A stretch of 63,523 nucleotides of DNA, counting the filler, from Reclinomonas americana ATCC 50394 (Eukaryota): assembly GCA_048213135.1 (NCBI GenBank). It is 4 parts of 2 records of this genome, joined end to end, with 100 filler letters (N's around TTAATTAATTAA, not from the genome) between each part and the next. Parts side by side here need not be neighbours in the genome. Positions count along the whole stretch, not along the records: positions 1 to 24,269 come from PS015169.1; positions 24,370 to 39,318 come from PS015169.1; positions 39,419 to 59,021 come from PS015169.1; positions 59,122 to 63,523 come from PS015170.1. One strand, written 5' to 3'. The first letter of the stretch is position 1, and every line of letters begins with the position of its first letter. The position numbers were made by a program, and so were the translations under genes. The notes below the pieces were generated by a model. The model was not told where the DNA came from. It was given only the letters and a program-made list of their open reading frames with translations, and did not search any database. Positions 1 to 62,100 of the stretch are shown here, one piece after another.

Positions 1-3000
1 TTCACCGATACTCTGTCCAGCAATGGTGCCGACCATTTCGCCGGGGGTGATGATGGCCTTTTGGAAGCGCGTCTCAATCTCCTTTAGCAGCGTGTCGAAC
101 GAGTCGCGATCCAGTTTGTGTTCCTGCGCGACAAGAACAAGAATGAGTACTGCAACGATACAAAGGATGCGCTGCCAAATCACGCAACAGCAATCACGCG
201 CTTGGAGGCCAGCATGGAGCGCACGTAGATTTCGAACAGCAGCGTGGCATTGGAGCTCATTTCCACGTCCTCGATCTTGGTGACTGTCACGCGACTGCAC
301 AGCTCGCGCACCTGGTTGATAATGTACACCGGCTGCAGGTAGCTCTGCGTGTGCACCGAGATGCCGGCCTTGCGCTGCGCGTTGATAATCAGACGCTCAA
401 TGTTGACAGGCATCGGGGCCTTGCCGACACGGATGCGACCGAGGAAACGGCGATCGTCCAGCAGCTGCGCAGTCTCGGCCGCCAACTCTGCCAGTTGCGT
501 GGGGTCATTCAGCAGCTCCATGCGTACCTGCACGGAGAAAAGAAAGACAGTGAGCACCAAATCCCCCCACACGGAGACCAGAAATCGATGGAAAAGTACC
601 TCAGGCGCCAGGCACTTGCCAAAGTCGGGTCGCGGATTGTGCCCGTCGAGTTCGTATCGGTACCTCCGGTTGAATTGGCCTTCGTCCATACCGAACAGCA
701 CAATCGACACGTCCTCCAAGTGAATCGGATCCAGACCGTCCTCGCCGTACACAAACTGCAGAATGTTGCCGCCAGCGTCACGGACGGTGGCATCGTAGCG
801 CACTTGCACATCCTCCATGGCCTTGATGAGGCGGCGCTGAATGTAACCGGTCTCGGCGGTCTTGCACGCCGTATCAATGATACCCTCACGACCGCCCATG
901 GCGTGGAAGAAGAACTCGGCGGGCGTCAGGCCCTGCACGTACGAGTTGGCCACGAAGCCTTTCGACTCGGCCTCGTACACGTCCTGCTTGTAGTGCGGCA
1001 GGGTGCGGTTGCGGAAGTTGAAGGCGATACGCTTGCCCTCCACGTTCTGCTGTCCGACCGAGGCCACGACTTGGGCAATGTTGTTGATGTCGCCCTTGGA
1101 GCCGGCCGTGGCCATGGCTTTGAAGTTGTTGGAGCGGGAGAGGCGTTCAAGGGCGTGCTTGCCGGCTTGCTCGCGGGCTTCGTTGAGGGGCTGAAAAGGG
1201 GGAGGAGGGCGAGGGAGGGGGAAGGGGAAGGAGGTGGAGGGGGAGGGAAGGGGAAGGGGTGAGGGGGAAGGAGGAAGGGGGGAAGGAAAGGGGGGAAGGA
1301 AAGGGGGTAAGGAAGTAGGGAGGAAGGAAGGGAGAGAAAAGGAGAGAAGGAGAGAGTGAGTGAGTAATCGACGTACGGTAGAGTAAGAAGGGAGTGAATG
1401 CGAGTACATAGTAGAGGTCGTGATTGACANNNNNNNNNNNNNNNNNNNNNNNNNNNNNNNNNNNNNNNNNNNNNNNNNNNNNNNNNNNNNNNNNNNNNNN
1501 NNNNNNNNNNNNNNNNNNNNNNNNNNNNNNNNNNNNNNNNNNNNNNNNNNNNNNNNNNNNNNNNNNNNNNNNNNNNNNNNNNNNNNNNNNNNNNNNNNNN
1601 NNNNNNNNNNNNNNNNNNNNNNNNNNNNNNNNNNNNNNNNNNNNNNNNNNNNNNNNNNNNNNNNNNNNNNNNNNNNNNNNNNNNNNNNNNNNNNNNNNNN
1701 NNNNNNNNNNNNNNNNNNNNNNNNNNNNNNNNNNNNNNNNNNNNNNNNNNNNNNNNNNNNNNNNNNNNNNNNNNNNNNNNNNNNNNNNNNNNNNNNNNNN
1801 NNNNNNNNNNNNNNNNNNNNNNNNNNNNNNNNNNNNNNNNNNNNNNNNNNNNNNNNNNNNNNNNNNNNNACGGTGGCATCGTAGCGCACTTGCACACTCC
1901 CTCCAGTGGCCTTGATGGAGGGCGGCGCTGAATCGGTAACCGGTCGTCGGCGGTCTTGCACGCCGTATCAATGATACCCTCACGACCGCCCATGGCGTGG
2001 AAGAAGAACTCGGCGGGCGTCAGGCCCTGCACGTACGAGTTGGCCACGAAGCCTTTCGACTCGGCCTCGTACACGTCCTGCTTGTAGTGCGGCAGGGTGC
2101 GGTTGCGGAAGTTGAAGGCGATACGCTTGCCCTCCACGTTCTGCTGTCCGACCGAGGCCACGACTTGGGCAATGTTGTTGATGTCGCCCTTGGAGCCGGC
2201 CGTGGCCATGGCTTTGAAGTTGTTGGAGCGGGAGAGGCGTTCAAGGGCGTGCTTGCCGGCTTGCTCGCGGGCTTCGTTGAGGGGCTGAAAAGGGGGAAGG
2301 AGGGCGAGGGAGGGGGAAGGGGAAGGAGTGAGGGGGAGGGAAGGGGAAGGGGTGAGGGGGAAGGAGAAGGGGGAAGGAAAGGGGGAAGGAAAGGGGTAAG
2401 GAATAGGAGGAAGGAAGGGAGAGAAAAGGAGAGAAAGGAAGAGAGTGAGTGAGTAATCACGTACGGTAGAGTAAGAAGGGAGTGAATGCGAGTACATAGT
2501 AGAGGTCGTGATTGACAGCAACTGACGATGAGAGATAGCAGACGAGAGCATATGAATTAGAGAAAGCGACACCGCGTGCATGTAAGAAAGGCACATGTAA
2601 CGCACGCAGTACTGACAAGGACAGGTTGAGGAAGAAAGAGAGAGAGAAGCAATTTGACGAGTGCGTGTCATCATCTGCGACACCAGAAGAGCGGTGAACG
2701 CGAGTGCAAGGTAGATAAGGTCAAACGAGTGCGAAAGAGTATGGTAACAACCAAATCGGCACATGTGTGTTGACGACCACCTGAACATGAAATGGCGCAC
2801 GAAGCGCTAACAAATGAGAGAGAGAGGGAGGGGGGGGGGGGGGGGACAGAGACATAGAGAGACAGAGAGAAGAGGAGAGAGAAGGAGAGAGAAAACGTGT
2901 GTGTGTGCGTGTGTGCGTGTGCGTGCGTCAGAGAGAGAGCGAGAAGCCAAACGTGCTGAAGAGCGCAAAATACGTCGGCTTGATGGAAAGCGAGAGATGG

Positions 3001-6000
3001 ATAGCGAGAGAGAGAGAGAGAGAGAAAAAAACACATAAACAAGAAGATGTGCCAGCACAAGAGGAGGGTTACCAAAAGGAGGCTGCTCTCTCACTCCCTC
3101 CCGTGATCTCCCTCCCTCGCCTGCTCTTCACCCCCCACTCACCGCATTCACGAGTCGCTCAAACGACTCGAGCAGCGTCAAACCGGGCTTCGGTTCAAGC
3201 TGATGCCGCTTCAGGTTCTCAATGTGCTGCTTCACACGGTTGCGCGCCTCCTCGACAATCTCCTCGATACGCCGCTTCGTCTCATCGTCGGGCACACAAT
3301 CGCCAATGCCAATGGAGAATCCATTGTGCAGCAGCCAGTAGTTGACCACACGCTGGCAATCGCCGACGAGCTTGGCGCACACTGCCGGGCCGTACTCCAT
3401 GTAGGTGACGTGGATGAGTGAGCCGCCTGACGAACCCATGGTGTTCTTGCAGCAAATGCCCGCAATCAGTTGGCCTGCCACACAAAGGGAGAGAGTGAGG
3501 GAGATGCGCTCATGCAAAGAGACTGAGGCCATTTATACCTTGCTGAATAATGACATTGGTGTCACCGATCGAGGCGTCCGGGTCGATCACGTCGGGGTGC
3601 GATGCGTCGTCGGGATGACCCTTGGACTTGCGATTCACATTGACCGGCGGCAAGAACTACGAAGAGAGAAAGTTTAGTGGCAAGCAAGAGAGCGCATCCC
3701 TCAACACGACATCACCTGTGAAAACAGCTGCTTGCCGGTCCACAGTGGGCGCGGCTTGAGAATGGCGGGTGTCGGGATCTGTCCGTTCCAGTCGTCGACA
3801 TACATCAGGTTGTTCATGAACATGTCCTGGCGGCAACAACGGGCGTGGGTGAGTCGGGTGACCAGCCACCGTATCTCTCTCTTTCTAGTTATCCTCACCT
3901 TCTCAATAAACACATCGCGCACGGTCAGTTTGCGGCACGCCAGCAGACTGTCCTGCACAATGCCCATGACGGGACTGTTCGACTTGGGTGAAATCATGTT
4001 CTTCGGCACCATCATCTGCACATGGAGGGGTGGTGAGTGTGCGCGACACCACAATGACCCGGAAAAAGAAGCAAACCATTTCCATCAGCTCGGCCTTGGT
4101 GAGAAGGCTTTGCGGCGCGTGCAAGTTCATTTCGTCGCCGTCGAAATCGGCATTGTATGGACTGGTGACGGAGAGGTTGAGGCGGAATGTGGAGAACGGC
4201 ATGACTCGCACGCGGTGACCCATCATGGACATTTTGTGGAGGGTCGGCTGGCGGTTGAACAGCACAACGTCGTTGTCCTGCGGTAAAGGGGGTAAGAATG
4301 AGAAGGATGGGTAGGAGGAAAAGGGGGTAAGAAGGAGAAGGATGGGAGAGAAGGATGGGAGAGAAGGGAGAGAAGGAGAAGGGGAAGGATGGAAAGAAGG
4401 GGTAAAGGGGGAGAGAGAGTGTGACGGAGACGGAAGGCGGAAGAAGTGAAAGAATGTGCAACAGATGAGAGGAGGAAGAGAGAGGAACTGAGGAGAGGAG
4501 CAAAAATGACACAAACATTTCTCCGTTTCTGCTTTCAATTTCCTTTCTACACTTCTTCTTTTATTCTTCAACCCCACTGACTTTTCTTTCTTCGTTTCTC
4601 TCTCACACGCATCCTCTCGCTGCTTTTCTCAGTGTGCAAGAGAGAAAGAGTCACAAAAATGAAGACGGAGACGACAGCCAGAAGCACGAGAGTTCTGTGG
4701 AGTCTGACGGAGGAAAGGGAGTCGAACAGGAACACGACAATGGGGACGCATGAGAAGGACGAGATGCGTGGAGACTGAAGGAGAGAACAGAGGCCTCTAA
4801 GAGAGAGGCAATCGACAAGAGGCGCATTCAATCGACCTTCTCCAACAACCTTTCCCTATAAACCCACACCACGCAACTGCCAAATGCCTCTCCACAGTGT
4901 ACCCATACATCAGCGGCACGTTCGACGAGTAGCGCAGATCCTTGCGCATGCCGTCGTCGGTGATGACGTAGCGCGCGCCGGGGTGCACCTGCGGGCCGCG
5001 ATGCACGAGGTCCTGCAGACGACGAATGTTGTACTGCGTCACGACCTCGGGCACCGTCATGCGCAGCGCGACCTTGTCGGGCACACCGACTTGGTCGATC
5101 TCGATGTTGGGGTCGGCGGTGATGACAGAGCGCGCGGAGAAATTCACACGCTTGCCCATGAGGTTGCCACGAATGCGACCCTCCTTGCCCTTCAGGCGCT
5201 GTCGAATGGATTTGACAGGGCGGCCACCGCGCTTCTGCTTGGCACGCTCCAGTCCCTGCTGCTCATTGTCCATGTACGTGATGACGTGGAACTGCAGCAG
5301 CTGCTCCGTCTCCAGCAGCTGATGGGGTGGTGCTCCCGACTCCTCTTCGCGCCGCAGGTTGCGGTTGACAATGAGAATGTCGGAGAGCTTGAAGGTCAGG
5401 TCGTCTTCCGAGCGACCACCCGAGCCACCGGCCACCACCGACGGCCGGATGCTCGGCGGGGGGACGGGAAGCACGGCTGCATTTATATTTTGCTGTCAAA
5501 TGAATGCAGAGACGGATGACGGGAGAAACAAAAAAAAAACGCAACTGAGAATCATCCAGTCGGGACGAGCCTGGTCGGGGTTGAAGCCCATCATCTTGTA
5601 GGCCTCGTCGTCGACCTTGCTGAGGATTTCGTGGGCCACTTTTGGGCTCAGTCGTTCCTGTGGTGCACGACAGGAGAGGGTGAGGGAAAGGAGGAGAAGG
5701 GTGGGAGGGGAAAGAGGAGAAGGGTGGGAGGGGAAAGAGGAGAAGGGTGGGAGGGATAAGAGGAGAAGGGTGGCAGGAAAAAGAGGAGAAGGGTGGGAGG
5801 GCAAAGGGGAGGCAGGAAGAAGAGAGGAAGGGCGAGGGACTGAGAGAGAGTTGCCTTCGCTCCCCTTCCCTCTCCTATTTCACCCAGTTCACCCACCTTG
5901 GTGTGCCCACTTCCACCACCGCCGCTCTTGTACTCCACCCACAGATCCATCTTCATCTTGCGAATGTTGTGTGGGCGCTGGAAGCCACAGCCGCTGTTCT

Positions 6001-11700: not shown

Positions 11701-14700
11701 TCACTGCTGGAGGCTACCGACACCCACGCGCGACTAGAAGCGCGAGCTGTCCAAATCACGCCTGAGTCAGCAGACGTGTAAATATTTCCAGGATTCGCAA
11801 CAGCCACCAGCTTTATTCCGTCGCTGCTAGATGCCACTGCAGTCCAGTTACGACCAGCATCACGAGCCGTCCAAATCACGCCAGAGTCAGCAGACGTGTA
11901 AATATTACCAGGATTCACAACAGCCACCAGCTTGGTTCCGTCACTGCTAGATGCCACTGCAGTCCACACGCGACTTGAATCGCGAGCCATCCACGTCACA
12001 CCTGCGTCAGCAGACGTGAAAATATTACCAGGCTTCACAACAGCCACCAGCTTGGCTCCGTCAACACTCGAGGCCACTGCAATCCAGTTGCGACTCGAAT
12101 CACGAACAACGGAAGAGCTGACTGCGCACGAAGGCCCTGTGTACGATTACAATATCAGCGACAGCGCACGACGAACTCACTGACAGGACCAACTGCACCA
12201 CTCACCAGTGCACGGACTCGCGCAGATGCACGAACCGTCGGAGCCACAGGTACCGTGTCCAGAGCACTTGGCAGTGGGACTGCAGTTGCACCTGGCGTTG
12301 GCGTAGTCGCCCGTGCACTGGCATGTGCCGTCAGCCTTGCATGTTCCGTTGCCAGAGCACGTCGTAGCTGCCAAACAGTTCACAGTGCACAAGGCACCGT
12401 AGTAGTCAGCGTCGCACAGGCACGTTCCATCGATGTTGCACGTTCCACGTCCAGAACAGGTGGTGGCGGGACTGCAGTTCACATTACACGATCCTCCATG
12501 ATAGTCAACATCACAATGGCACGCGCCATCAATGTTGCAAGTTCCATGTCCAGAGCACGTGACAGTGGGACTGCAGTTGCAACTGGCATTGGTGTAGTCG
12601 CCCGTGCACTGGCAAGTGGCGTCACTCTTGCACAATCCGTTGCCAGAGCACGTCGTGGCTGCCACACAGTTCTCAGTGCACGAGGCGCCGTAGTAGTCAG
12701 CGTCGCACTGGCATGTGCCGTCAGTTTTGCAAGTTCCGTGACCAGAACAGGTGGTAGCGGGACTGCAGTTCACATTACACGATCCTCCATAATAGTCAGC
12801 ATCACAATGGCACGCGCCATCAATGTTGCAAGTTCCGTGACCAGAGCACGTGGCAGTAGGACTGCAGTTGCAGCTAGTGTTGGTGTAGTCGCCATTGCAC
12901 TGGCATGTACCGTCATTCTTGCACATTCCGTTACCAGAGCACGTCGTGGCTGCCACACAATTCACAGTGCACGAGGCACCGTAATAGTCAGCGTCGCACT
13001 GGCACGTTCCATCGATGTTGCACGTTCCATTGCCGGAGCACGTCGTAGCAGCCACACAGTTCACAGTGCACGAGGCACCATAGTAGTCAGCGTCGCACTG
13101 GCACGTTCCATCAACATTGCATGTTCCGTGACCAGAGCACGTGACAGTGGGACTGCAGTTGCAGCTGGCATTGGTGTAGTTGCCAGCGCACTGGCATGTG
13201 CCGTCAGCCTTGCATGTTCCGTGACCGGAGCACGTGGTGGTGGGACTGCAGTTGCAGTTAGCATTGGTGTAGTCGCCCGTGCACAGGCATGTTCCATCAA
13301 CATTGCATGTTCCGTGACCAGAGCACGTGACAGTGGGACTGCAGTTGCAGCTGGCGTTGGTGTACTCGCCAGTGCACAGACACGCGCCGTCACTCTGGCA
13401 CGTTCCGTGACCGGAGCACGTGGTGGCCACCACACAGTTCACATTGCACGATCCTCCATAATAGTCAGCGTCGCACTGGCACGTGCCATCGATATTGCAT
13501 GTTCCGTGACCGGAGCACGTGGTGACCGGATCGCACGACGACTCACACGTGCCGAGCGCACAGCTACCAGAGCAGCAGTCACCACCAGTCGAGCACGCAC
13601 CACCCAATGCCAAGCAACCGCATCGCGCTGTACCGTTCGCCTCAAAGCACTCGCGACCCTCGGCACACTGCGCGACGATCTGAGTGGTGCCATAGACACA
13701 GCTCAGCAACTCACGTCGATTCAGTGAGCACGTCGTGGTGCCGTCTGGCAGCGTGCACACGCCGCAGTCGGAACCACTGTAGCCGGCGGGGCACGAGATT
13801 GGCGCGCCTTGCGCCGCACGACCAGTTGCCACCCACGTCACGTACTCCACGTCCAACGCATCCGCCCCGCTGGCGTTGAAAGAGATCGCCGTCACATAGT
13901 CCTCGTTGCCGAGGCGCTTGGTGGTGAACTGGAGCGACTGCTGATCGATGCGGTTCTGCACAATGACTGCCGACGACTTCCACCCACGCAGGAACAGCTG
14001 CACGCTGATGGTCGCACGTAGCAGACCATTGGGGGTCGACGCCGTCACCAAACTGGCTGTCTTTGTCACTGTACTGCTGGTGTGTGTTGTTTCTGCACCA
14101 CAAAACAATGGGTCAACAAAGAATAACATGGTGCGCAGCGTCTCAAAAAAAAGAGAGAGGGGAAAAGGTGATCGCACCACCCGAAAGCATGACAAATCCA
14201 CTGTTGTTGGTGCTGTCGGTGCGCGCCGGTGCCACAGCAAAGCGCGCACACACCGCCCCCATGCGTGAGTCGCCGCTCACCGTCCCCTTGACGACAAAAC
14301 TCGACCGCGAGGCTGAGCTGCTTGTCACCGAAAAGTTGTCGCCGCGAACGCGACCATCGTCACTATCACTCGACTGCCGCATCGACAGCACACCAATGAC
14401 GGCCACCGGAATGGTTGGCACCGATGCAAACTGGTACGTAGACGACACACTCAACAGCTACGAACCGTCAGCGGGTCAATCAACACGATTGCACACAACC
14501 GCATCGCACGACCAAACCACGCAACAGTCGAACTGCTCTTGTTCACCGCATCCGACAACCACGACTTGCTCGTCAGCGTGCGCTGACCATCCACTGACAG
14601 AGCATTCGTCTGGTGCACGTAGTACGCCAGGTAGCCTGCAGGCGAATGATGAGTCACACTTCCTCTCACACGTCTCCTCCGCCACCTAACATCGCCAGTG

Positions 14701-39362: not shown

Positions 39363-39374
39363 TTAATTAATTAA
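39363..39374. other. Artificial scaffold linker
   Basis: TTAATTAATTAA within N runs. Confidence 0.95.
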
Positions 39375-44567: not shown

Positions 44568-46728
44568 ATGTGGTCGTTCCTTGGCAGTGTCTTGTGCTAC
44601 TTGCTGTACGCGCTGGTGGCGGCTGTGCTTGTGCAGTGCTCAGTGGCACTCTATCGCATGTTTGTGGCGCCTCGAGAGTACCGCGGCAAGCATGTGTTTA
44701 TCACTGGAGGATCCACGTTGCGTCGACTCTGTGTCTCTCTGTGTGCATGTTGCTCTGTGCTCATTGTGTGTGATGCAGTGGCATTGGACTGAGCATTGCG
44801 CACAAGTTTGCCCGTCGCGGAGCGAATGTGGTGGTGTGTTCGCGCACAGAGAGCAAGCTGCGAGCGGCTGTCGACGAGCTGGAGAAGAAGGCGCGTCTCT
44901 CTCTCTCACACACGCACTCTCATTATTAGCTGTGTGACTCCTTCAAGTNNNNNNNNNNNNNNNNNNNNNNNNNNNNNNNNNNNNNNNNNNNNNNNNNNNN
45001 NNNNNNNNNNNNNNNNNNNNNNNNNNNNNNNNNNNNNNNNNNNNNNNNNNNNNNNNNNNNNNNNNNNNNNNNNNNNNNNNNNNNNNNNNNNNNNNNNNNN
45101 NNNNNNNNNNNNNNNNNNNNNNNNNNNNNNNNNNNNNNNNNNNNNNNNNNNNNNNNNNNNNNNNNNNNNNNNNNNNNNNNNNNNNNNNNNNNNNNNNNNN
45201 NNNNNNNNNNNNNNNNNNNNNNNNNNNNNNNNNNNNNNNNNNNNNNNNNNNNNNNNNNNNNNNNNNNNNNNNNNNNNNNNNNNNNNNNNNNNNNNNNNNN
45301 NNNNNNNNNNNNNNNNNNNNNNNNNNNNNNNNNNNNNNNNNNNNNNNNNNNNNNNNNNNNNNNNNNNNNNNNNNNNNNNNNNNNNNNNNNNNNNNNNNNN
45401 NNNNNNNNNNNNNNNNNNNNNNNNNNNNNNNNNNNNNNNNNNNNNNNNNNNNNNNNNNNNNNNNNNNNNNNNNNNNNNNNNNNNNNNNNNNNNNNNNNNN
45501 NNNNNNNNNNNNNNNNNNNNNNNNNNNNNNNNNNNNNNNNNNNNNNNNNNNNNNNNNNNNNNNNNNNNNNNNNNNNNNNNNNNNNNNNNNNNNNNNNNNN
45601 NNNNNNNNNNNNNNNNNNNNNNNNNNNNNCGCACCGCAAACTTGGCCGGCGAGTACGTCGAGTAGCCGACAAAGGTCATGAACGCCGCCGCCGACGACAC
45701 CATGATGATTTCTCCGGCACGCTTCTCGTCGACCTTGCATGCACCACAGTGAGATGACCATCATCGGCAACCCCTTTTTGCGCACCAGAAGAGAGAGAGA
45801 GCACACCATCATCTTGGCGGCGATCTTGACGGGGTACAGAGTTCCAAAGTAGTCCAACTGAATGGCGCGCTCAAACAGCGCCAGATCCTGCTCCACAAAG
45901 TAGCCAGGCGTGGAGGCACCAGCGCACGCCACCAGCACATCAATCGGGCCCAACTGCGCCGCACTCTGCTCCATCACACGCGCCACATCCGCACGCGACG
46001 TCACATCGCACACGAAATGCTGGAAACGCTGCGAGGAATCCACACGCGACTACGCAATGCACNNNNNNNNNNNNNNNNNNNNNNNNNNNNNNNNNNNNNN
46101 NNNNNNNNNNNNNNNNNNNNNNNNNNNNNNNNNNNNNNNNNNNNNNNNNNNNNNNNNNNNNNNNNNNNNNNNNNNNNNNNNNNNNNNNNNNNNNNNNNNN
46201 NNNNNNNNNNNNNNNNNNNNNNNNNNNNNNNNNNNNNNNNNNNNNNNNNNNNNNNNNNNNNNNNNNNNNNNNNNNNNNNNNNNNNNNNNNNNNNNNNNNN
46301 NNNNNNNNNNNNNNNNNNNTGGTCTGGCGGAGACGCTGCGCAATGAGCTGCTGCCGCACAACATTCGTGTGCATCTGCTGTGCCCGTGCGACACGGACAC
46401 GCCGGGCTTTGCGGAGGAGAATCGCACCAAGCCGGTGGAGTGTGTGGAGATTAGCAAGCAGGGTTCGGTGGTGTCGGCCGATGCCATTGGCGCCGGTCTC
46501 ATGGCCGGTCTCGACCGCGGCGACTTCTTCATTGGCGGCGACTTTGGCTCGCAGGTGCTCTTTGCGCTCGGCAACGGTGCCGCCAACCCGCGCTCCGGAT
46601 TCGGGCTGCTGGAGGTTTTGCTGCTGCCGCTGCTGGCGGTGGCCGGCTGGTTCGTGCGCCACACCAACGACACGATCGTGAAGAAGTTCTTCAAGAAGCC
46701 ACAGGCGGCACCGCGCGCTCGCAAGTAG
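44568..46728 (+). CDS. KDSR: 3-ketodihydrosphingosine reductase (SDR family); middle exons at 45630-46062 are mis-oriented in the assembly
   Basis: N-terminal TM, HVFITGGSTGIG, VSSAAAFMTFVGYSTYSPAKFAVRGLAETLRNEL, CDTDTPGFAEENRTKP. Confidence 0.88.
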
Positions 46729-46826: not shown

Positions 46827-47980
46827 TCAGTCGCGCATGGCAACGTCGCCGTCGCCACCACCGGCCAGCGCCTCGTGAATCGCCGTGTCCATCTTGACCA
46901 CGCACTGTGTGGTCTCGCGCCCGTCCTTGTTCGCCGACTGTCGCACCTCTGTGCAACAACAACCACGTGAGGGGACGTCAGCGAAACATGAAATGCACTG
47001 CCGTGCCACGACGCACCAAGGGCAAAATCATCCTGCGTGTCCATGGGCTTGATGGCGGCAATGCCCTCCTTGACGAGGAACGACAGCTGGAACATGCGTT
47101 CGACGGCCTCGGGGAACGAGTGGCCCTGCAGAATGTCGTGCCGCACGGTGAGTGATCGCTGGTGCGACAACGCGTCCAGCTCCTTGCGCATCCTCGTGAC
47201 ACGCAGAGTGGTGGGATCCGCCGTCTCCTTGGCGGAGGCGGCCGACGGATCCACTTGCGAGATCTTGGTCACCGGAGCATCGCGCAACGCTCGTCGCTCC
47301 GTGTGCTTGCGCTCCTTTAGCGGATTCTCAATCGAGCCGTACCTACGCGCGCGCAGAGAGAGAGAGAGAGAGCATGGGCACCCGCGCAGCGCCTGTCCCT
47401 CCGAGACACACACACACACACACACACGCAACAGGAACTCGATGCGTGGTACTGTGGGATACAGATGGCACACCGACTGGCCGAGAGTCATCCACGAGAT
47501 GCCGGCGGCCTCCGGGTCATCGCCCGTACGCTTGTACTCTCGCGCAAACTGCTGGCACACCTCGCCCGCGTCAATCGCATCGGGATCCGTGCGCAAGTGC
47601 TTGGCCTGGTGCACACCAGCCGACGAGATCTTCTTGATCCACGCCGAGTCTTGCGCCGCCTCTCGCGGGTGACTCACTGTGCATGCGCGCAAGAGATGAT
47701 CAACACGGCGAGTCACACAGAGACAGATGCGCGCATGAGGAACCTTGCTGGAAGATCTTGTCGCCCTGTTTCAACAGATCCGACGCCTTCTCATTGCCAG
47801 GCAAACGCAGTGCCTCCTTTGCATCTGATACGCGTCATTGTTGTTGTTGTCAGTGTGTTACAAAAGTGTCACACACACACGCACACACAAGCACGCACCA
47901 TCCGTTCTCTTGGTGAGTGCCTCGTACTCCTTGCGCGTCTTCAAGCGCAGTGCAAGCTGCTGTGTCTCTTCGGCGTCCAT
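46827..47980 (-). CDS. NSE4: Smc5/6 kleisin subunit Nse4/EID3-like
   Basis: RKEYEAL, VSHPREAAQDS, EFLYGSI, SFPEAVERMFQLSFLVKEG, QCVVKMD. Confidence 0.75.
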
Positions 47981-48199: not shown

Positions 48200-49544
48200 A
48201 TGGCCACCGAGGAGCAAGTGTTTGTGAACGCGCTGCAGCTGCGTCGCGATCAGCGCAACGCCATATTAGCGCGCACCGATGAGTTTGTCAAGGCTGCAGT
48301 CGAGTTCCTGGGCGACGCGGAAAACGTTGCGCGAGGGGCGGAGAGAAGCGATGCCCGGTTCGGTCCTCTCTCACTTGCTCACCTCTCTTCCCTCCTTTGT
48401 GTGTGTGTGTGTGTGTGTGTGTGTGATGCATCAGGTTGCCGAGGTGCGCAGCGCATATCGCGATGCGGTGGGTGCATATCATCAGCAGTTGGCGTTGCAT
48501 CGGCAGCGCGAAGTGCACGACGATCGACTGACGCGCGCGGCGTTGCGGACGGCGCCGGAGGAGCGCTCGGCATCGGAGCGCATCTTTGTGGCCACGCACC
48601 AGCGACACGCAGAGTGGCGCGAGTTGCTGGCGAACAAGGAGCGTGAACTGGAGGAGCGACAGGAGACGACGCCGTATCAGCGGCTGACGGTGGAGGAGCG
48701 CGATGCGGTGCGCCGGTTAGGCGAGTGGCGGCTGGAGGAGCGTAAGCGGGAGGATAGGCGGGTGGCCGACACGAGATTGCGACAGAGATTGATTGGTGGT
48801 GGTCCCGGATCGTACACGATGAGTACCGGAAACAGTGGTGCTGGTTCGACGCAAATGTGGACCGCGTCGTCGCCCATGCAGTCCGGTGTCTATGTACCAC
48901 CACCACTGCCGCCACCGCCACCGCTTTCGTTGGGCATGTCGGCGACCGCTGTCACCAGCACGACGCCGCAGGCGGCGGCCGGTATTACTCCGCGCCGTGC
49001 CGCTTCGGTGTCGCACATTCAGCGATTACAGTCGGACCCGGGTTTCTCTGGTCACGATGCCATGAACGGGCACGGATCGCTACAGCTGACGCCCCATCAG
49101 CAACAACAACACTATCAACACTACCAGCAACAGCACCAGCACCAGCAGCAGCTGCAGCAGCCGCAGGGTGCCTCTGTCGATCCTCTCCGGTTGCGATGTG
49201 TGGCCGAGACGTTTAGCACGCGGTTACCGTCGGCCGACTACTCACGGTTGCAGCTGTTGTTGGAAAAGGTGCGTCGACTTTCTCCGCACTCTCCCTTCCT
49301 TCCTCTCACACCATTTTTTGTCACGCAGGGTGTTATTGGCGACGTGTTGGACATGTACCTGCGTGGTGAGGCCCCACCAGCAATACAAGCGCCGCCATCC
49401 AAGGGATCCGCGGCCATGGCAGCCATGGCCAACGGGTCCTCGTCATCGTCGTCGTCATCATCGTCATCTGCACAACGCGGCGCGTGGAATGGTGTGACGC
49501 ACCAGCCGGCCTCCAAGACGCTCACCGACCACTTCTTTCGCTGA
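48200..49544 (+). CDS. Hypothetical protein (coiled-coil N-terminus, Pro/Gln/Ser-rich C-terminus), 2 introns
   Basis: ATG at 48200. Introns 48326-48434 and 49269-49329 give a continuous ORF. Confidence 0.7.
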
Positions 49545-50913: not shown

Positions 50914-53900
50914 ATGAACACCGACGACGGAATGCTGCCTCTGGTGGCGGAGCAGCAGCAGCCGCGGGATCCGCTCGCCGCTGAGCAGCCGCCAAATGAA
51001 CCAGAGAATCATCCGTTGCTGTTGCAGCCAGTGGAGGGACTGCTCCGCACGCAGGTTCGGAGAGAGCAAAAGGACGATCTCTCTCGCCACTGTGTTCACA
51101 ATCCTCTCCTGTGTGTGCGTGGGCAGATCTGGAGGCTGATTCACACGGCCGCTGGCGCAGTGGGCGGGTCCACGTCACGGGCGGCGTTTGCGTCGCGTCG
51201 CTTTGAGACTTCTGTGCGCATTTGCATCGTTGTTGATCATCAATCATCCTGCTGCTGCTCATTTGTGTCGAGCAGGTCTCGCTGCTGAAGGGTCTCCCGC
51301 AGCGCCGCATCTCGCAGGCGGTCAGTCAGTGGTGGTTCAACTCCTCCAAGGGCATGGTGTACGTTGAGTAGCGTGTGCGAGTGCACAGATCGCTCACCCC
51401 GAATTGCATAGCTCATCTCAGTTGGTGCGCAGGATTGGTTGTACCTGACGACTGTGGCGTTGTCGGTGGTGTTGTACGTGTACTGCACGTACAACACCGA
51501 TTCGTTGACGTTGCGTGCGAGCGTTTGGTGGTCACATGGGTGACGGGGTGTGTGCTGACAGAGTGGAATGGGCCAGATCATTGTGGCTGAGAATCTTGGA
51601 GTTGTACATTGCGACAGTGTTTGTGGCCGACTTTGTGTTGCATGCACTCATCGCGCGTCGCTTGTGCGTGGCGTGCTCCCGCTAGTTATCAATGTGCACG
51701 TTGCATTCATCGCCTTTGTGCAGGCGACTGTTCCTGCTGAGCGTTACCGGCATTGGGGATTTCATCACTCTGTGGCCAGTGTTGCGTCGTAACTCGTTTA
51801 TTGTTGCGTGGGGTGACAGTGTCCAATGCGTGTGTGTGCTGACGGCACAGGGTGCTGGTGTGGGCAACCGATGTGAGCGGCGTTTGGGGTCTGCTGTGGC
51901 GACTGACCAGCGTCCCGCGGATTGTGCGATTCTCTCGCCTGCAGCGAGTGTTCCACAGAAGAGGCCTGGATATCGAGAGCTGTTGCGTCTTCCTGATTCT
52001 TCGGGGGCGACCACGTCTATAGTATCGCCCACTGACGGGCACTTCTCGACACGCAGCCATCGCTCTGCAGGTGCAAGTGCTGGCCTTCACCGTCGTCTGC
52101 ATTCTCTTCATTGCTGCTGGTGCCTTTCAGGCCGGTTCGTTTGGGGGATTGTGTGTGTATGTCTCCAGCTTCCTCCTGTGCTGCTTACGCGAATACGACT
52201 GGCAGTGGAGATTTTCTGGGACGGCATTATAGTCACATTTCTACAAGCGGTGTACTTTACTGTCGTGACCATCGCCACGGTCGGCTACGGCGACATCTCA
52301 CCGCAGGTTCCTCTTTTGCCCATCGTCTCCGTGTAGTAGTGGTGGTGCTTGTCGACTCATGTGTGCATCGCTGGCGGCAGACCAATGTCGGGCGCGTCCT
52401 CGTGATTCTGTTCCTCCTGACCGTCATCATCATCATTCCGCTGGAGACGAACCGCTTGTTTTCCATCATCTCCGAGACCAATCGTTGCGTGCCACGACCA
52501 AATCAAATTATCTGCTTTCACTTTTGTGTGATTGACTGAGAGACGCGAATACAGGTTACCGCCGCAAAGCGGTAATTCGGCGCGGTCATCAGCATGTATT
52601 GGTCACGGGGGATATCGGTACCGCCAACATTGTGCGCTTCACACGCGAGTTCTTCCACTCGGCACACGGCACACAGCGCCTGCAATTGGTATTCCTCGCT
52701 ACTGTGAATCCGTCGACGGAAACAGAAGTTGTTGCGTGTGCGCGTGCGATTGCTTTCGTCGTCTCTCACGTTGCACGAGTTAACTGAGCTGTTGGGTTCT
52801 TGGCTAGCTTTTCTTCACGCATCCGCACGGAAACCTGATGCAGTACGTGCTGGGATCTGCTGTCTCGCCTGTCGATCTACGTCGCAGTGCAACAGCAGAC
52901 GCGGTAGCGGCATTCGTGTTTGTGGATCGACTGTCACCGAGGCTCGCCGACAGTGATGCGATGAACTTTCTCCGCGTCGCCGCCATTCGCAGCACCAACG
53001 ACATTTGCCCCATATTTGCGCAAGTGACCTTGCCGCAAAACAGGGTGCGCATGAGAGCGGGAGATTTTTGTTCTCCCGCACTCCTGTACTCATGTGTTTG
53101 TCGCAGAAACACCTGTTGGCGGCAGGCGCCACTCAAGTCGTGTGCATCAACAGTCTCAAAATGGTTCCTTCAAACGCCACCGATGTGTATTTATTGCGAT
53201 GCTTACTCGTGCTCCTTCATCCTGCAGAGCATTCTTGCTCGTAGCTGCCTGTGCCCGGGCTTTTGTGCATTCGTCAGCAATCTGATGAAATTCGACACCC
53301 CATTCAGCCACTTGGACGGCGACAGCTGGGAGGAGGAGTATGGTTGCGTGTTGTTCGCTCACTGTCGCTGCCGTATTGTCATCCCCTCATGCTGCCGGTG
53401 CTGTCACACAGCGCACGGCTACGCTCATGAGATTTACACGACTTCATGGCCGAAATCCATGCACGGAGTCAGCTACGGCGATGCAGCGTCGGTGCGTCAT
53501 CCTTGTGTAATCTGCACATTCATTCGTGCGTGATTGCGCACTGACTGCGACTCTTTGACGACAGTACCTTTACGCCAAGTACGCTGCCATTCTCCTGGCA
53601 GTCACCGGCAGCATTCGCGACCCGCAGAAGAATTATGTTGCCTACGTGCGTCGACAACGAAGCGCACCACTTGCCACCACACAGGCCATGAGCATCTCAC
53701 TCATTCTTTGCATGTAGCGCACAATGGTGGCACCGCCTTCTACTCTCGTGTTGGAAGCCGGTTATAGATGCACGCTGATTGCTGCAGATGCGTCAGTCGC
53801 GCTGAGCATCGCGTTCGACACCCACTTTGAATCCGTGAAGGGGAATCATCGCCGTGCCTCTCTCACCCTGAACCGTACACCACCAGGTGCGTGTCGAGAC

Positions 53901-56900
53901 GAGTACCCATCCCCCTGTGTGATCGTTCACTCATCACGTGCATGCGCACAGTTTCCTCTGAGTCGACCCTGTCTCGGGAGAGTCGTGGTGGTTCTTTCGT
54001 TCTACCCCCGGCACCGGTCACTCGCTCGCTGCAAGATGACCCAGAGCTGCTTCTGGCTGTTCGGTCATCTGAGCACCACGTTGCTGGTTTGCAGCATGTT
54101 TTCCTTGCTTCTTTCGCTTTCTCTTGCGCACTGACTTTCCTCTGCCGTAGCGGTGGAAAAGGAGCAGATTCGCAGGTCGGCCGAGTATTTGAACGAGGCG
54201 GCCAAGCTCAGCGTACCGTTGCGTCACTCGACGGCTGCATTATGCTTCCGTGCACTTCTCACCACTCCTGGGAAACAGCGTGCATCTTCTTGCTGCTCGC
54301 TATGCGCTCTTGCCACGCATTCGGTCTCTGAAGGAAAGTGTGGTGGAATTCATGCCGCTGGAGATGATGGATCATATTCTGGTGCGTGTTTTTTGAGGGT
54401 GAACGATGGTGTTGAGTGGTAGACTGACTGTGCCCAGTTGTGCGGTCCGCTCGCCAACGTGGTCCACTTTGTGCTACCACTGCGGTCATTCACCCTCGGT
54501 TCTTTGGACGCACTCGTCGACATTGTTGTGCTCACTCCGCACCTTCCAACTGGTTCGCCTCTGAGCATCCTTTCGTGTGCGTAGCCTGTTGCTCACCGTC
54601 GCCACGCGTCCTGCAGCTGACGAGTGGGCGCCTCTGTCGGTGCTTCCCAAGTTGCATGTGGTGGTGGGCGATCCGCGCGGTGAGTGGCACTGCGTACTTG
54701 GCTTGCGCACTGCCTGTTAATCTCCTTTTTTCCTGTCGTTAGAACGCACGGATTTGCAGCGATGCAACGCGAGAGTGGCCAAGTCGATTGTTGTTGCGTC
54801 ACTCTGCCAAGTAGTGGTGAAGAAGAGCGCATTTGGCGATCTCCTCCTTCTCACCGCCGAGTGCATGCACAGATTTTGACGAGCACGCACTTATCGGGAG
54901 ACTCATCGTCTGTGTTGGAAGCCGGTGTCGATGATCACGACACCATCTTGACGCAGCTGCAGCTGGTTCAGTCGTACTCGCTCGAGAAGTTTGTGCTGGC
55001 CGACATTGGTGCGAACCGAGTAAGACAAGTCGTGACGTGTGTGTGTGTATATTTCTGTTTCTCACGGGGTTTTTACTTGCAGGTCATGTTTCCAGTCTGA
55101 AGTTCTTGAGACCAACCGTGCACGTCACAGTGGAAAAAGCGAATGCTGCTTTGCCGTTGCGTTTGCCTTGCGCCTGCTGCTCACGAATACTGTGATCTGC
55201 TTCATAACGTCGGTCGACAGTTTCGGCAAAGCCCAGAACAAGGTGCTGCCGGTGCTGGCCGCCGGTAGAGCCTACGTGAGCGACACCCTTGACAATCTCA
55301 TGTGCATGGTCAGTGTTTTCCGCTGATCCATGTCACTCTCAGTGCTGTCTCATGGTCTTCGTTGCAGTCGTTCTACACGCCGTCGGTGCTGCCGCTCATC
55401 GAACACATGGCCGGTCTCGTAGACGCCTGTATCCACGACTTCTCCATCCCCCAGGGCAACATGTACAGTTTCCCGTGTCCTGAGGGGCTCGTTGTTGCGT
55501 CGCAATGTTGCGGCATTGTGTTGCGTGGGGTCTGACTGACTTCTTCTTGGCGAACAGGGCCGGTCATTCCGCGACGTGTTCGATACCATGATGCAGGTGT
55601 ACGGCATCCTCGTCGTTGCGTTGTATCGACGAAAGGACGGATGCCAACTGCCGTACGTCTTCACTTGCCCGCCGAAGAATACCGTTGCGATTCAGCATGA
55701 GTGTGTGCGCACACGGCGGTTGATATGTTGGACTCACGTGTCACCGCTCTGCTCTTGGCATGCAGGTTGTACACCAGCAAGATCACCTAATGGTCCTGTC
55801 GCGACTTCCACCATCCGCACTCGACTTGTCGCTTGTGGACGGTAACGCAGGCTGTGGTGACCCAGGCGCGCCATTTGTCCGCCGGTGTGCAAGTGTACGC
55901 GATGTGGCTGCGTCGCCAGCTACACGCCTACTTCGACGGCGTCACACGGACAAGATGTTTGCCGGTCTAGAATACGTGAGTGATGACACAGCGTTGCGGG
56001 AAAGTGGTGCGTCTGCTTCCCGCTGTGCGACTCCGGTGCGAGCATCTGGTGGACAGCAGCAACGGTTTGCAAACGTTGTTTTGTACGGAGAGACTGTGGA
56101 AGGACTCATCATTCACCCCTTATATTCGTGTAGGCAATCGGGCACGCAGTCGTCCCAGTCGACGCCAAGTCACGCCCACGCACGGCGGACCATGTCCGAC
56201 ACGGATGTGAGCGAGCGCCCCTCCACGCCATCAATGGCGTCCAGAGCAAGCGCGGTCGGGCCTCCTCCTCTCAGCAGCGTAACATCGCCGACCAAGTCAA
56301 TGGAGACGACGGCGCCGATACTAATGCCGGCACTGCATCGATCGCGGGATGTGTTGATTGGTGGCGGTGCCAGCGGCCACACTGTGCGTGTCCGGCGGCC
56401 CCTCGGTGCTCCAGTTCCGTTATTTTCCCGGCTCTTCACGCTGCGTATAACGTGCTCACCTTCTCTGTGACGACAGCTGCACGGCGCAGCGATGACGTCT
56501 GCCCTCGAGGAAGCCGATGATTGTGGCTGTGGATCTGGCCATGTGGAAGTACCCCTGCCGCATGACCCGGCGTACGAGACGTGGCTGGGTGTGGTCTCTC
56601 CGACAAAAGGCGACGGCTGTGCGTCTGCGGCGGCGGACGAGGCGGAGACAGTGCCGAAGCGGGCGCCCAGCCCGCTGCAGCTACCGCGTACCGAGTCACT
56701 GCCTGCGTCTTCACCGGTGCTCTTTTCGACCCCGCACAGCTCGCCCCTTCTTGCGAGAAGGCGCCAGAGTCGCGCTCTGGCCGCCGACGGCTCATCGTCA
56801 TCGCCACCGTCGACACCGGAAGTAGTTACAACTCCTGCCGCCAGTGGCGCTGATGCAACTACTCCACGCTTTGTAGTGGTGCACGTCGAAGACTTCGATA

Positions 56901-57300: not shown

Positions 57301-57331
<31 letters not shown>

Positions 57332-58946: not shown

Positions 58947-59065
58947 GTTGCGAAACTAGCGTGCAATAGCGCACCTCTCTCTTCCCTTACCTATGCATGT
59001 GCGTGTGTGCACGCTCGCGGGNNNNNNNNNNNNNNNNNNNNNNNNNNNNNNNNNNNNNNNNNNNN

Positions 59066-59077
59066 TTAATTAATTAA
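59066..59077. other. Artificial scaffold linker
   Basis: TTAATTAATTAA within N runs. Confidence 0.95.
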
Positions 59078-59121
59078 NNNNNNNNNNNNNNNNNNNNNNN
59101 NNNNNNNNNNNNNNNNNNNNN

Positions 59122-62100
59122 GCCACTTGGTCGCTCGGTCAGCTGGAGCTGAACGCGCCAGTGGTGAACGAGGCGAAGCGAGTGCCGGCAGTGGAGATCC
59201 ACGCCAACACGATGTGGGTGCAGTCGTACACGCAGTTCAAGCTCGGCACTGACCAGCTTGGTCCTGGATATCGCACTCTGAATGTGCAGACGTACGCGGA
59301 GAATGNNNNNNNNNNNNNNNNNNNNTGTTGTCCGTGAAGAACTGCACTAGTGGAATGCGGTTTCCGCTGCCGAGGGCGTCAACTCCAAAGATTGCGCTCA
59401 CAAATGCTTCCACGTTGAGCGCATTCACATGCATCTCCAGCAGCGGGATTCGCAACTGCTCCGGATTCGCCACAGCGGCGTTCGAGTGCACACCGAACGA
59501 CGCCTTGGTGCGCGCCTTGAGCAAGTAGGTGCCACTGTAGATGCTGAACGTCGGAATCGGATTGTAGAACGGGGAGGCTGCATAGTCTTGCCCGAACACA
59601 GCCGAAGTCCGCATCACCATGCTAAATGTGTCGCCTGACATCGAAGTCGAAGTGGCATAAGTATCTGCATTTGTACCAGTCAATCAGTCAACGTGTTGCG
59701 GCGAGAACAGGAACAAGAGAAGACACACGACAGTCCGCAACTGAGAGCCGGAATCTCGGCCGCCAGTGATCCAAGCTGCATGACAGAGCTAGAATAGGCC
59801 GTAAACTTTGTTGTCTCAAAGTCTACTTCGTTGGTCCACACGGTGAATTTCGGGTTGGGTGCGCTCGAGTTACCAAACTGCGGCAAAAGGGAGGCAATGC
59901 ATCAGCACAGGAGCAAGCGGGCGCCAGCGCGGTGACCGACTGGTACACACCGTCACCAAATTGTCCGAGTCAAACTCCATCACCGGCGAGCGGACAGTCA
60001 TCGTGCTCGCAGCCGCCACCACCATGTTCGCCGTGGTAACCGGTGAGCCAAGCAGCACCGTGGGCGCGACTGCACTAATAGATGTTGATGTAGAGATGGA
60101 CAATGTCTGCACATTTGCGAGAAGGGTACAGGGTTGGAGACGGCGCACGCAGACGGCAAGAGACGGAAACACATGTGTCATACCTGGCCCTCCATGGTGA
60201 TGGTGTTTGTGGACGAAGGACTACCGAGCCGGATAGACGGGCTGACCAAGTTGTAGACTGTCGGTTGCACAGTGTGCGTTCCACCGCCGATGGTGGCGGT
60301 AGTGGCGGACACTGTCAACGTCGACGCAGTGACACTCGCCGATGTGGTGCTGTTGAGCGTGAAGATGGGCACCGTGAGGGCAGCCGACGTGCCAAAAGTG
60401 CTCGTGGAGACCTTCAGTTGTAGCCATGGTTAGCACAACAACAAGGAACAAAGGGAAAGAGGGGACGACGACACACACCAGCGCGCGTGTCATGAGCGTG
60501 GCAGTAGTCGGAGCGCCAATGTTGACAGCCGACGACACTTGCGTGCCAATGTTTGTGGTGGGCGCATCGACGAGCACCTGCGTACCGCCGCTGATGTTGA
60601 TCTGTTGTTCCATCATCAAAATGTGAGACGCACAAGGCAAGCACAACACACATTGCCGCAGCACAACAAACCGCGTCACAAAGCAACGAGAGTGGAAACG
60701 CTGCGCCACTGGCGATTTCGACAGAGCAACCAGAGCGCGCCAGGCGCACACCCGTGGATGACAGCAGCACAGTGCTCGGTGTCGCGCCGGTGACTTGCAG
60801 GGTAATTGGCTGCGATGACAGCAGCGACACCGTGTCGGTGGCCGTCAGCGCAACTTGCCCGACAGTGGCCTATGCACGCGCACAGACACCAACATGAGAA
60901 AAAAACAGCAGCACGGTAGAACCCAAAAAGACTGCGCACAACACCAGCGTACCGTCACTTTCGTCGGTGCCGAGATCACCAGACTGGCGGTTTGCAGCGA
61001 CAGCAAGTTGTTGCTCGTAACACCCAGATTGTTGGTGGTGGCAGCAGAGCCGAGAGACATGACCGGCGCCACCGAGGAGTACGAGTTGTTGAACTGTCCA
61101 TCCCAGGCACTGGCTCTGGCCACTATATTGGTGCTGGCTGGTGTTCCAATATTCACCGCCGTACCGTACATGTTGAGTGCGGAGACGGTAAATGTGTAAG
61201 CGCCACCCGTGAAGTTCGCAGAAGTGGAGGCGGCCAGCGAAAAAGCAGCAGTCGTGAAGCTGATGGAAGTCGGCGATGTCAACGAAAACGTCGGAGCCGA
61301 CAGCTGAAGCGAGGACCCAGCGGTCACGCTGACAGCCAGGCCGCGAATCGACACGGACGCCGTCGAAATTCGTCCAACATTGACTGTGGTGGACAGCGAG
61401 TTGCCGACGTTGACCAGAGCACCATCAAGAGCGGCGCTGGTCACAGCCGTGACGCCAATCTGCACACGCAAATGCGTGAGAAAAATACTCTAAGCGCAGT
61501 GATTGCTGAAAAATACGCACCGTATCACAAGCGAGCTGCATCGGAACTGCAGCATCACTCAGCACAATGCTACAGGCATCGCGGCTGATCTGAATCGAAG
61601 CCGTGGAAACCGCAATGGTGTCGATAGGTGACACGCCAACGGAAACGCCAAACGAGCCAGCGACGGACGAGAATGTTGTTTGCTCAGCAAACACACTGGC
61701 TGTGGGAACAGGGACTGCCGCACTGCCGATTTGCACAATGGTGGAGCCCTGCATGCACGTCGGTTGAGGTTCAGCAACCAACCCAACTTTCAACAAAGCG
61801 GCGAGAAAAAAATGGGCACACGACTAGCGCACCATAAGAGACACATTGTCGCCAGAGAGGGAGATCTTGTCGTTACTCGTCAGTGCAATGTTGGTTGTGC
61901 GCGACACATCACCAATGGTGAACGTGCCGGCGACCGAGGTCCACGATGTGGCGATTGAGGACGACCACACTTGCGAGTTGACAGCAATGCTCGTGGTGGT
62001 CCCATTCAGTCCGAGAGTAATATCGCTGGCATGAAGACGCAACGTCACCGGATTGACCGTATACAGATTACCACTACGCGAGAATAGTGCTGATGAGAAA

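Follow-up and report, generated by a model that had tools for sequence, protein, structure and literature searches.

Which 5' splice site do the introns of Reclinomonas americana use? The question is raised by a 63.5-kb window (63,523 nucleotides (nt), linkers included) of the genome of strain ATCC 50394 (assembly GCA_048213135.1), in which an earlier note had listed 32 GT-AG introns that begin with GTTGCG. On the evidence below, ordinary GT-AG spliceosomal introns of this window very often begin with GTTGCG(T), which is a real 5' splice site (donor); an estimated third to half of the introns have it in place of a usual donor consensus. The balance tips slightly towards a further reading, namely that this common and real donor is the same element as the donor G/GTGCGT (the slash marks the exon-intron border), read by U1 and U6 in a register displaced by one nt. 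The note had presented such recognition as a mainstream mode of the lineage, a description that finds support, as to the frequency of these donors, within this window only.

All results rest on the sequence of the window and on protein homology. For RPB1, eIF2B-epsilon and a BK-type channel, junctions were scored against homologs by joining neighbouring exons in every frame-compatible way over about ±45-75 nt, with no splice-site rule imposed, and the rank of the GT-AG solutions was then read off. No close relative turned up in the protein collections searched: the best relative of RPB1 is a jakobid entry (66% identical), that of eIF2B-epsilon is 38% identical, and the relatives of the BK channel reach at most 44%, over short stretches. 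The BK junction near 53010-53165 stands outside the validated set. The gene finder was a small hidden Markov model with 3-periodic coding states, whose introns start with GT, end with AG (with a mild preference for YAG) and span at least 40 nt. It was trained on homology-verified exons first and on its own output next, and was run both with a motif-free donor and with a donor table learned from its own predictions, the latter being partly circular.

GTTGCG is present at 32 of the 32 listed positions, on the strand listed, and is usually followed by T, as had been reported (26/32 have T at +7). The hexamer occurs 78 times in the window. Counting both strands, GTTGCGT has 40 copies. In 100 shuffles that preserve dinucleotides its count is 12.38±3.69 and never exceeds 21, and this places its frequency in the window above what composition predicts. 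It is among the most over-represented GT-heptamers when microsatellite-like words are set aside. On our gene-strand map, 37 copies of GTTGCGT are sense and 2 antisense (binomial p=4e-8), and the figures for GTTGCG are 59 and 15, with 4 unassigned (binomial p=7e-6). With the GT microsatellite left out, no GTNNNN hexamer shows a larger sense excess than GTTGCG. The excess over the shuffles together with the sense bias identifies GTTGCGT as a transcript signal and not a composition effect. GTTGCG opens 10 of the 19 introns with homology-checked junctions and is the commonest donor hexamer in the motif-free run of the gene finder (8 of 62 introns, against 1.1% of all GT sites, p=6e-7), followed by GTGCGT (6/62). 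In the partly circular learned-table run the two account for 22 and 12 of 92 introns.

Ten GTTGCG donors are fixed by homology or by a conserved motif. In RPB1, the donor at 5545 gives the join WMIL-T/VLPVPP, which the earlier note had regarded as fixed by motif and which proved to be the top-scoring one: nothing ranks higher among 3854 joins without a splice rule, and the motif-free gene-finder run recovers it too. The donor at 188 is the top GT-AG solution of 1740 frame-compatible joins scored with 6 RPB1 homologs, with four non-canonical neighbours above it, and that at 4877 is the top GT-AG solution of 7453, with three non-canonical neighbours of the same length (shifts of 1-3 nt) scoring higher. 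The donor at 23394, in eIF2B-epsilon, leads the GT-AG solutions among 3703 joins (7 homologs; three non-canonical neighbours higher). In the BK-type channel, 53343 is the best of 2469 joins without a splice rule, tied with a 1-nt neighbour, and 52731 is the top GT-AG solution with one join above it. The weakest member of the validated set is 52484, the top GT-AG solution of 1242 with 7 distant homologs and nine non-canonical joins above it; the open reading frames (ORFs) that flank its intron match Pfam Ion_trans_2 and BK_channel_a.

The remaining junctions of this group lie in two other enzymes. The join TGGS-T/GIG of a KDSR-like SDR gene had also been claimed as fixed by motif, and the alignment to PDB 8x89_A agrees, with exon 2 aligning from its first residue (GIG) to residue 16 of that chain. 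In the 3-methyladenine DNA glycosylase gene, two GTTGCG introns flank a 37-nt exon (the 12-codon exon 2), and exon 3 aligns to residues 58-92 of the human enzyme (PDB 1bnk_A). Exon 2 presumably matches a motif of human AAG; a PDB search with these 12 codons alone gave no match.

The gene finder supports 14 more of the listed donors. In all, 24 of the 32 are supported as GT-AG donors, and the other eight fall outside the supported set, none of them being refuted. Six listed donors were recovered with no donor motif in the model (5545, 14708, 15621, 42568, 47432 and 48326), and the exon ahead of 42568 can be aligned with PDB Rae1 chains as far as residue 88. Three unlisted GTTGCGT donors were added (14525, 17245 and 20154). 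Among the eight, the RPB1 donor at 6723 competes with a GTATTA donor at 6719, 4 nt downstream, which keeps two more homologous residues, and the next exon is lost in the gap 6070-6264. The donor at 58947 lies only 75 nt ahead of the artificial linker 59022-59121, and six others were not fixed (27169, 51781, 51982, 55156, 55684 and 57796). The earlier note had also pointed to an alternative GT one codon upstream of three donors. Homology prefers 52731 over 52728, which scores 27 points lower; at the two others the motif-free run chose the upstream GT (54790 over 54793, 55491 over 55494).

Table 1. Introns, donors and other features of the window. Exon bases are in lower case; a slash marks the exon-intron border.
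Feature	Position	Strand	Length (nt)	Donor	Acceptor	Basis or remark
GTTGCG intron, RPB1	124..188	-	65	gct/GTTGCGTGA	CGCAG/g	homology or motif
GTTGCG intron, RPB1, after ERHLA	4278..4877	-	600	gca/GTTGCGTGG	CGCAG/g	homology or motif
GTTGCG intron, RPB1, joins WMIL-T-VLPVPP	5477..5545	-	69	tca/GTTGCGTTT	TGCAG/c	homology or motif
GTTGCG intron, eIF2B-epsilon	22724..23394	-	671	tct/GTTGCGTTG	CACAG/c	homology or motif
GTTGCG intron, 3-methyladenine DNA glycosylase, joins AAHS-Y-GGRR	37436..37739	-	304	cgt/GTTGCGTGA	CGCAG/a	homology or motif
GTTGCG intron, 3-methyladenine DNA glycosylase, joins GRIVEVE/AYAGPDD	37777..37847	-	71	gaa/GTTGCGCTC	AAAAG/g	homology or motif; sequence and gene finder
GTTGCG intron, KDSR-like SDR, restores TGGS-T-GIG (TGxxxGxG)	44717..44778	+	62	cac/GTTGCGTCG	TGCAG/t	homology or motif
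GTTGCG intron, BK-type K+ channel	52484..52554	+	71	atc/GTTGCGTGC	TACAG/g	homology or motif
GTTGCG intron, BK-type channel	52731..52807	+	77	gtt/GTTGCGTGT	GCTAG/c	homology or motif
GTTGCG intron, BK-type channel	53343..53411	+	69	atg/GTTGCGTGT	CACAG/c	homology or motif; sole listed donor with G at -1
GTTGCG intron, BNR/EGF-repeat gene	14636..14708	-	73	tga/GTTGCGTTC		motif-free and learned-table runs
GTTGCG intron, BNR/EGF-repeat gene	15458..15621	-	164	caa/GTTGCGTTG		motif-free and learned-table runs
GTTGCG intron, BNR/EGF-repeat gene	15932..16072	-	141	tct/GTTGCGTCG		learned-table run only (partly circular)
GTTGCGT intron, unlisted	14458..14525	-	68			motif-free and learned-table runs
GTTGCGT intron, unlisted, spans gap 16500-16719	16367..17245	-	879			motif-free and learned-table runs
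GTTGCG intron, eIF2B-epsilon C-terminal region	20422..20484	-	63	agc/GTTGCGTGC		learned-table run
GTTGCGT intron, unlisted	20034..20154	-	121			learned-table run
GTTGCG intron, RAE1/BUB3-like WD40 gene	42568..42649	+	82	gga/GTTGCGCCA		motif-free and learned-table runs
GTTGCG intron, GT54-like gene	42907..43000	-	94	gcc/GTTGCGTCG		learned-table run
GTTGCG intron, GT54-like gene	43048..43112	-	65	gga/GTTGCGTCG		learned-table run
GTTGCG intron, NSE4-like gene	47343..47432	-	90	cct/GTTGCGTGT		motif-free and learned-table runs
GTTGCG intron, orphan gene	48326..48434	+	109	aac/GTTGCGCGA		motif-free and learned-table runs
GTTGCG intron, channel 1	51510..51561	+	52	gac/GTTGCGTGC		learned-table run; also without donor model
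GTTGCG intron, channel 1	54218..54338	+	121	acc/GTTGCGTCA		gene finder
GTTGCG intron, channel 1, in-frame GT 3 nt upstream	54793..54872	+	80	gtt/GTTGCGTCA		gene finder; motif-free run: 54790
GTTGCG intron, channel 1, in-frame GT 3 nt upstream	55494..55557	+	64			gene finder; motif-free run: 55491
GTTGCG intron, last gene	59665..59741	-	77	tca/GTTGCGGAC		learned-table run
Exonic GTTGCGT, codons A-V-A-S	42530..42536	+		gcg/GTTGCGT		not a constitutive donor
Other intron (GTTTGC), RPB1	4016..4076	-	61	atg/GTTTGCTTC		no join higher without splice rule
Other intron (GTGAGG), RPB1	3827..3898	-	72	aag/GTGAGGATA		best (tied)
Other intron (GTGATG), RPB1	3657..3715	-	59	cag/GTGATGTCG		top GT-AG solution
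Other intron (GTATAA), RPB1	3475..3538	-	64	aag/GTATAAATG		best (tied)
Other donor, RPB1	3142			gcg/GTGAGT		validated
Other intron (GTGCGT), eIF2B-epsilon	22471..22537	-	67	caa/GTGCGTCGT		best (tied)
Other donor, eIF2B-epsilon	22118			aag/GTTTGT		validated
Other donor, eIF2B-epsilon	21739			ttg/GTGAGT		validated
Other intron (GTTCCT), channel, right after TVGYGD pore exon	52307..52380	+	74	cag/GTTCCTCTT		best (tied)
Artificial linkers	24270-24369, 39319-39418, 59022-59121					each 44 N + TTAATTAATTAA + 44 N

The introns behind these donors are ordinary in their other features. All 27 compiled ones start with GTTGCG and end with AG, have a median length of 77 nt (range 52-879), and are found in lineage-specific and housekeeping genes alike (the latter being RPB1, eIF2B-epsilon and a DNA glycosylase). 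Branch-like YTNAY motifs are found in 21 of the 27, against 8 of the 9 validated introns with other donors, and are of the same kinds (CTCAT, TTGAC, CTCAC, CTGAC). The pyrimidine fraction is 0.63, against 0.68 in the others, and the acceptor is YAG in both, with C (21), T (4) or A (2) at -3 in the GTTGCG introns. To judge from these shared 3' signals, both donor classes are spliced by the same spliceosome and are U2-type.

It is highly improbable that there is no splice-site class here at all, and that mis-set boundaries, the ends of introners (a mobile intron family) or U12-type introns create the pattern. The junctions were indeed inferred from sequence, 8 of the 32 listed donors are not fixed, and 6723 has a competitor, but ten junctions are fixed by homology or motif, the introns share nothing beyond +8, the donor is unlike the U12 type and the 3' ends match those of other introns. 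An introner family was rejected: the all-against-all comparison of the 27 introns gave three short matches at chance level (13-20 nt, E=0.007), and beyond +8 the composition is random, with nothing conserved. U12-type introns carry a /RTATCCTT donor and an TCCTTAAC branch site near the 3' end. As in the present class, a strongly conserved second 5' motif exists there next to a major consensus that is looser. However, GTTGCGT is unlike their donor, the GTTGCG introns are far too frequent, and neither branch motifs nor pyrimidine tract nor YAG set them apart from the other introns, so that a U12-type origin was rejected as well.

What, then, is the signal? Among the 13 distinct one-base insertion variants of GTGCGT, strong sense enrichment is seen only in GTTGCGT (37:2); the other insertions at +3 have sense to antisense ratios of 1:1 (GTAGCGT), 7:2 (GTCGCGT) and 5:9 (GTGGCGT). 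GTGCGT itself is sense-biased only after G (18:5 for GGTGCGT, against 34:32 for HGTGCGT). When sense copies of GTTGCGT (n=37) and GGTGCGT (n=18) are aligned on their common TGCGT, the flanks do not differ (chi-square p=0.75 and 0.74): the preceding base is T/C/A/G in 18/10/7/2 and 10/4/2/2 copies, respectively, and the following base G/C/T/A in 16/12/8/1 and 10/4/3/1. Matching flanks and a T insertion that alone is strongly sense-enriched bear out the proposal of the earlier note that GTTGCGT is the ordinary GTGCGT donor displaced by one nt. They point to a single element, G-K-TGCGT-(G/C), cut at the first GT. When K is G, the first GT would start at the second base and the leading G would stay in the exon. 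When K is T, it would start at the first base and cleavage would fall one nt further upstream, so that the G-T usually found at +5/+6 would lie at +6/+7, with C at +5. The element would pair with the 5' end of U1, and later with U6, one nt out of register with the cleavage site; the first G of the intron would fill the place of the exon-final G of an ordinary donor, and catalysis would then select GU. Registers of this kind have precedents in human cells, where, according to the available parts of PMC4856993, shifted and bulge +3 (or +2) U1 registers are documented at 5' splice sites and U1 can pair away from a cleavage site that is then fixed by U6; the accessible text of a review, PMC9311317, covers non-canonical U1 registers at rare human sites.

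The exon side of the junction separates this class from the others. An exon-final G is found in 1 of 10 validated GTTGCG donors against 8 of 9 other donors (Fisher p=0.001), and in 0 of 22 against 37 of 70 among gene-finder introns (Fisher p=2e-6). The base at -1 of the 32 listed donors is A in 10, T in 12, C in 9 and G in 1, against a G background of 27.7% (p=4e-4). The G/GT class has a loose intron side (GTGAGG, GTGATG, GTATAA, GTTCCT), and the GTTGCG class has seven near-invariant intron bases. The strengths of the exon-side and intron-side consensus are anti-correlated, and there are two donor classes. A split between exon-anchored and intron-anchored donors is known in plants, yeasts and animals, as the consulted parts of PMC9803359, PMC11732430 and PMC11842720 describe. 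In these sources it separates a U5-loop-1 type (AG//GU) from a U6-ACAGA type (//GURAG), that is, the LUC7-dependent left-handed and right-handed sites, and a split consensus is common to both systems: here, too, one class leans on the exon G at -1 and the other on the intron side without it. The differences are that the intron-side class of the window is one base longer, with C at +5, and that its anti-correlation with a G at -1 is near absolute, where the known two-class systems, as far as these excerpts go, show a tendency.

These exon bases bear on a bulged register, in which G+1 and U+2 would pair normally, one U (+2 or +3) would bulge, GCGU would pair as in GTGCGT, and U6 would tolerate the bulge. 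The +3 (or +2) bulge is a validated human register in the available parts of PMC4856993, and within a UU run either U could be the bulged one, a degeneracy that would account for the enrichment of the T insertion alone. However, the last base of the exon would still face a U1 C that prefers G, and G is at -1 in 1/32 listed and 0/22 predicted donors, against 8/9 and 37/70 other donors. Moreover, base -1 of the GTTGCG class resembles -2, and not -1, of G/GTGCGT, which favours the shifted alignment over a +3 bulge. We consider the bulge unlikely.

Alternatively, UGCGU could be a protein site or an intronic enhancer, at a spacing of one or two bases from the GU and with no snRNA (small nuclear RNA) pairing. 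The imperfect fit to standard U1 is in keeping with this idea, as is the fact that the motif does not suffice alone (exonic copies at 42530 and probably at 55615). We nevertheless regard it as very improbable: the position relative to cleavage is exact to the nucleotide in all validated cases, no such factor is known to us, and the motif is strictly anti-correlated with an exon-final G, as in the U5-type and U6-type classes (excerpts of PMC9803359 and PMC11732430).

A more substantial rival to the displaced register is a co-evolved snRNA. The U1 of this lineage, or a dedicated paralogue of it, would have a 5' end that can pair without a break along GUUGCGU, for instance through A in place of the C usually found opposite intron G+1, and U6 may have changed as well. 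Such an snRNA would have GUUGCGU as its cognate site, in the normal register, and G/GUGCGU as a relative with one mismatch. The standard U1 5' end is ACUUACCU, to which C at +4 or +5 and T ahead of the element are a poor fit. Sense GTTGCGT is also twice as common as GGTGCGT (37 against 18), as expected of the best-matching site, and its seven positions hardly vary, unaided by the exon. Transcribed variant U1 genes exist in human, according to the parts consulted of PMC3561869 and PMC10870369. On the other side, the remaining donors (GTGAGT, GTGAGG, GTATAA and GTTTGY, with exon-final G) look like ordinary U1/U5-type sites, and the 5' end of U1 is among the most conserved RNA sequences of eukaryotes, lineages with unusual donors included. 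The imperfect fit to standard U1 and the 2:1 excess over the canonical partner make a lineage-specific or second U1 a serious rival, which we hold to be possible, well short of probable. The same tentative standing applies to its fuller form, a rewritten splice code in which U1 or a second U1 (perhaps with changes in U6, U1C or LUC7) is complementary to GUUGCGU. One spliceosome would then read two grammars, an exon-anchored G/GU and an intron-anchored H/GUUGCGU, and an exon-final G would be a negative signal that silences exonic GTTGCGT. In the window, no Rfam family of any kind, snRNAs included, matched at the gathering score, and at E<=5 only low-complexity artefacts appeared.

Several points weigh against the displaced register or the donor class on which it builds. 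With a standard U1 in the shifted register, U+2 would lie across from C8 and C+5 across from a pseudouridine, and U10 would face -1, which predicts A where T and C are commonest. The depletion of G at -1 is predicted by none of the pairing models considered, and the snRNA pairing itself is something we purely infer. The motif is not sufficient, since exonic copies of GTTGCGT exist: the one at 42530 lies inside a stretch aligned unbroken to PDB Rae1 chains (query residues 4-88), and a second perfect copy, at 55615, is probably unspliced in a channel exon. The sample is small and uneven, consisting of one window with about 20 genes, and 11 of the 32 listed donors come from a single gene. The gene-strand map was drawn in this analysis from homology matches and gene predictions, and all junctions depend on homology, reading frame and the GT-AG rule. 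The 'other' donors of the gene finder are unreliable, as it misplaced 4 of 9 validated non-GTTGCG donors by a few codons. With these misplacements, and with the two channel genes never assembled whole, intron totals are rough. Finally, GT-AG was assumed: if both ends of an intron are moved by 1 nt, the sole effect is a G as first base of the downstream exon, and the mRNA stays the same where that base is G anyway (10 of 27 introns; in 17 it is not). Introns starting with TT would be compatible with protein homology in this way, but their last bases would vary, and we rejected this reading.

How does this donor compare with known systems? Few features of spliceosomal donors are as conserved as G at +5 and an exon-final G. 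In Entamoeba the lineage-specific consensus is GTTTGT, which likewise departs from GTRAGT, and GTTTGY donors also occur here (4076, 22118 and 42215). However, GTTTGT keeps G at +5 and T at +6, and the GTTGCGT class has these bases at +6 and +7. In mammals, shifted-register sites such as GUUAAGU are reportedly rare, and, to our knowledge, only odd mammalian sites have been found to be read, as a minor mode, in non-canonical U1 registers. The mammalian shifted sites (Roca and Krainer 2009, via the available text of PMC4856993 and PMC9311317) are like those of the window in having GU followed by a consensus displaced downstream by one base; with cleavage still at GU, the first G of the intron pairs where the last G of the exon would otherwise do so, an arrangement that in our case would follow from the displaced register. 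They differ in that no other single donor type of the window is as common as GTTGCG (10/19 validated; 8/62 to 22/92 predicted), that the displaced core is GCGU and not AAGU, and that an exon-final G is avoided. The bulge +3 (or +2) registers (Roca et al. 2012, via the same part of PMC4856993) likewise have one extra intron nt between GU and the downstream consensus, but there the model favours an exon-final G, which is depleted here (1/32).

What would be new is a non-canonical donor register, known as a rarity, that serves as the main mode in the window. If true, the register between snRNA pairing and cleavage is something that a lineage can inherit and use as a mainstream element of its splice code, and nature would offer a system in which to ask what determines the cleavage site once U1 leaves. 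In such a genome, a third or more of the introns would be annotated wrongly by gene finders trained on standard donors. We found no earlier description of a GTTGCG or GUUGCG donor in the open full-text literature, searched by letter strings without targeting the lineage and with supplements and subscription papers aside; the matches to the motif letters were primers and unrelated sequences. For comparison, Andalucia is described as intron-poor and Diplonema as having 1.6 introns per gene (excerpts of PMC7050145 and PMC10161547, respectively), and neither matches what is seen here.

The window has a G+C content of 52.6%. Of its 20 runs of N, three are artificial linkers of 100 nt each. The window is therefore a stitched pseudo-scaffold, in which neighbourhood across linkers is not guaranteed. 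An excess of TTAATTA(A) in the k-mer counts is an artefact of the linkers. Introns and spacers are rich in (CT)n, (CA)n and CTCACT-type microsatellites, which dominate the k-mer statistics and lead to spurious Rfam matches, e.g. Hsp83_3_UTR.

In RPB1, two further donors have weak support, aag/GTGGGT near 5896 and gag/GTACTT near 599. One exon of this gene is duplicated on both sides of the gap 1430-1869 (region 1187-2314, with copies at about 2290-1922 and from 1187), probably through an assembly duplication, and the intron upstream measures 858 or 1952 nt, depending on the copy. An ATG at 6786-6791 (-) lies just upstream of the first recognisable residues and out of frame with them, which places the true start or a further 5' exon elsewhere.

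The very large gene at 8778-17363 (-) alternates BNR/Asp-box-like units (YTSTDSGVTWT) with tenascin-type EGF-like cysteine repeats, and has long open exons and at least 5 GTTGCGT introns. The RAE1/BUB3-like gene occupies 41460-42710 (+); it had been called BUB3, and its PDB match is better to Rae1/Gle2 (E=5e-19) than to yeast Bub3 (E=6e-9). An orphan ORF had no match in the protein collections searched.

Two K+ channel pore exons with the sequence TVGYGD, at 52232-52306 (+) and 58680-58921 (+), lie about 6 kb apart, and the second of them suggests two tandem paralogous channel genes. At four sense copies the sequence GTT/GTTGCGT offers an in-frame alternative GT 3 nt upstream (52728, 54790, 55491 and 23807). 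A 64-nt channel intron opens with three copies of GTTGCG spaced 13 nt apart (55494, 55507 and 55520, within 55494-55526, +). Only the first copy, 55494, is in frame with the mapped acceptor, and the others may be decoy or alternative donors.

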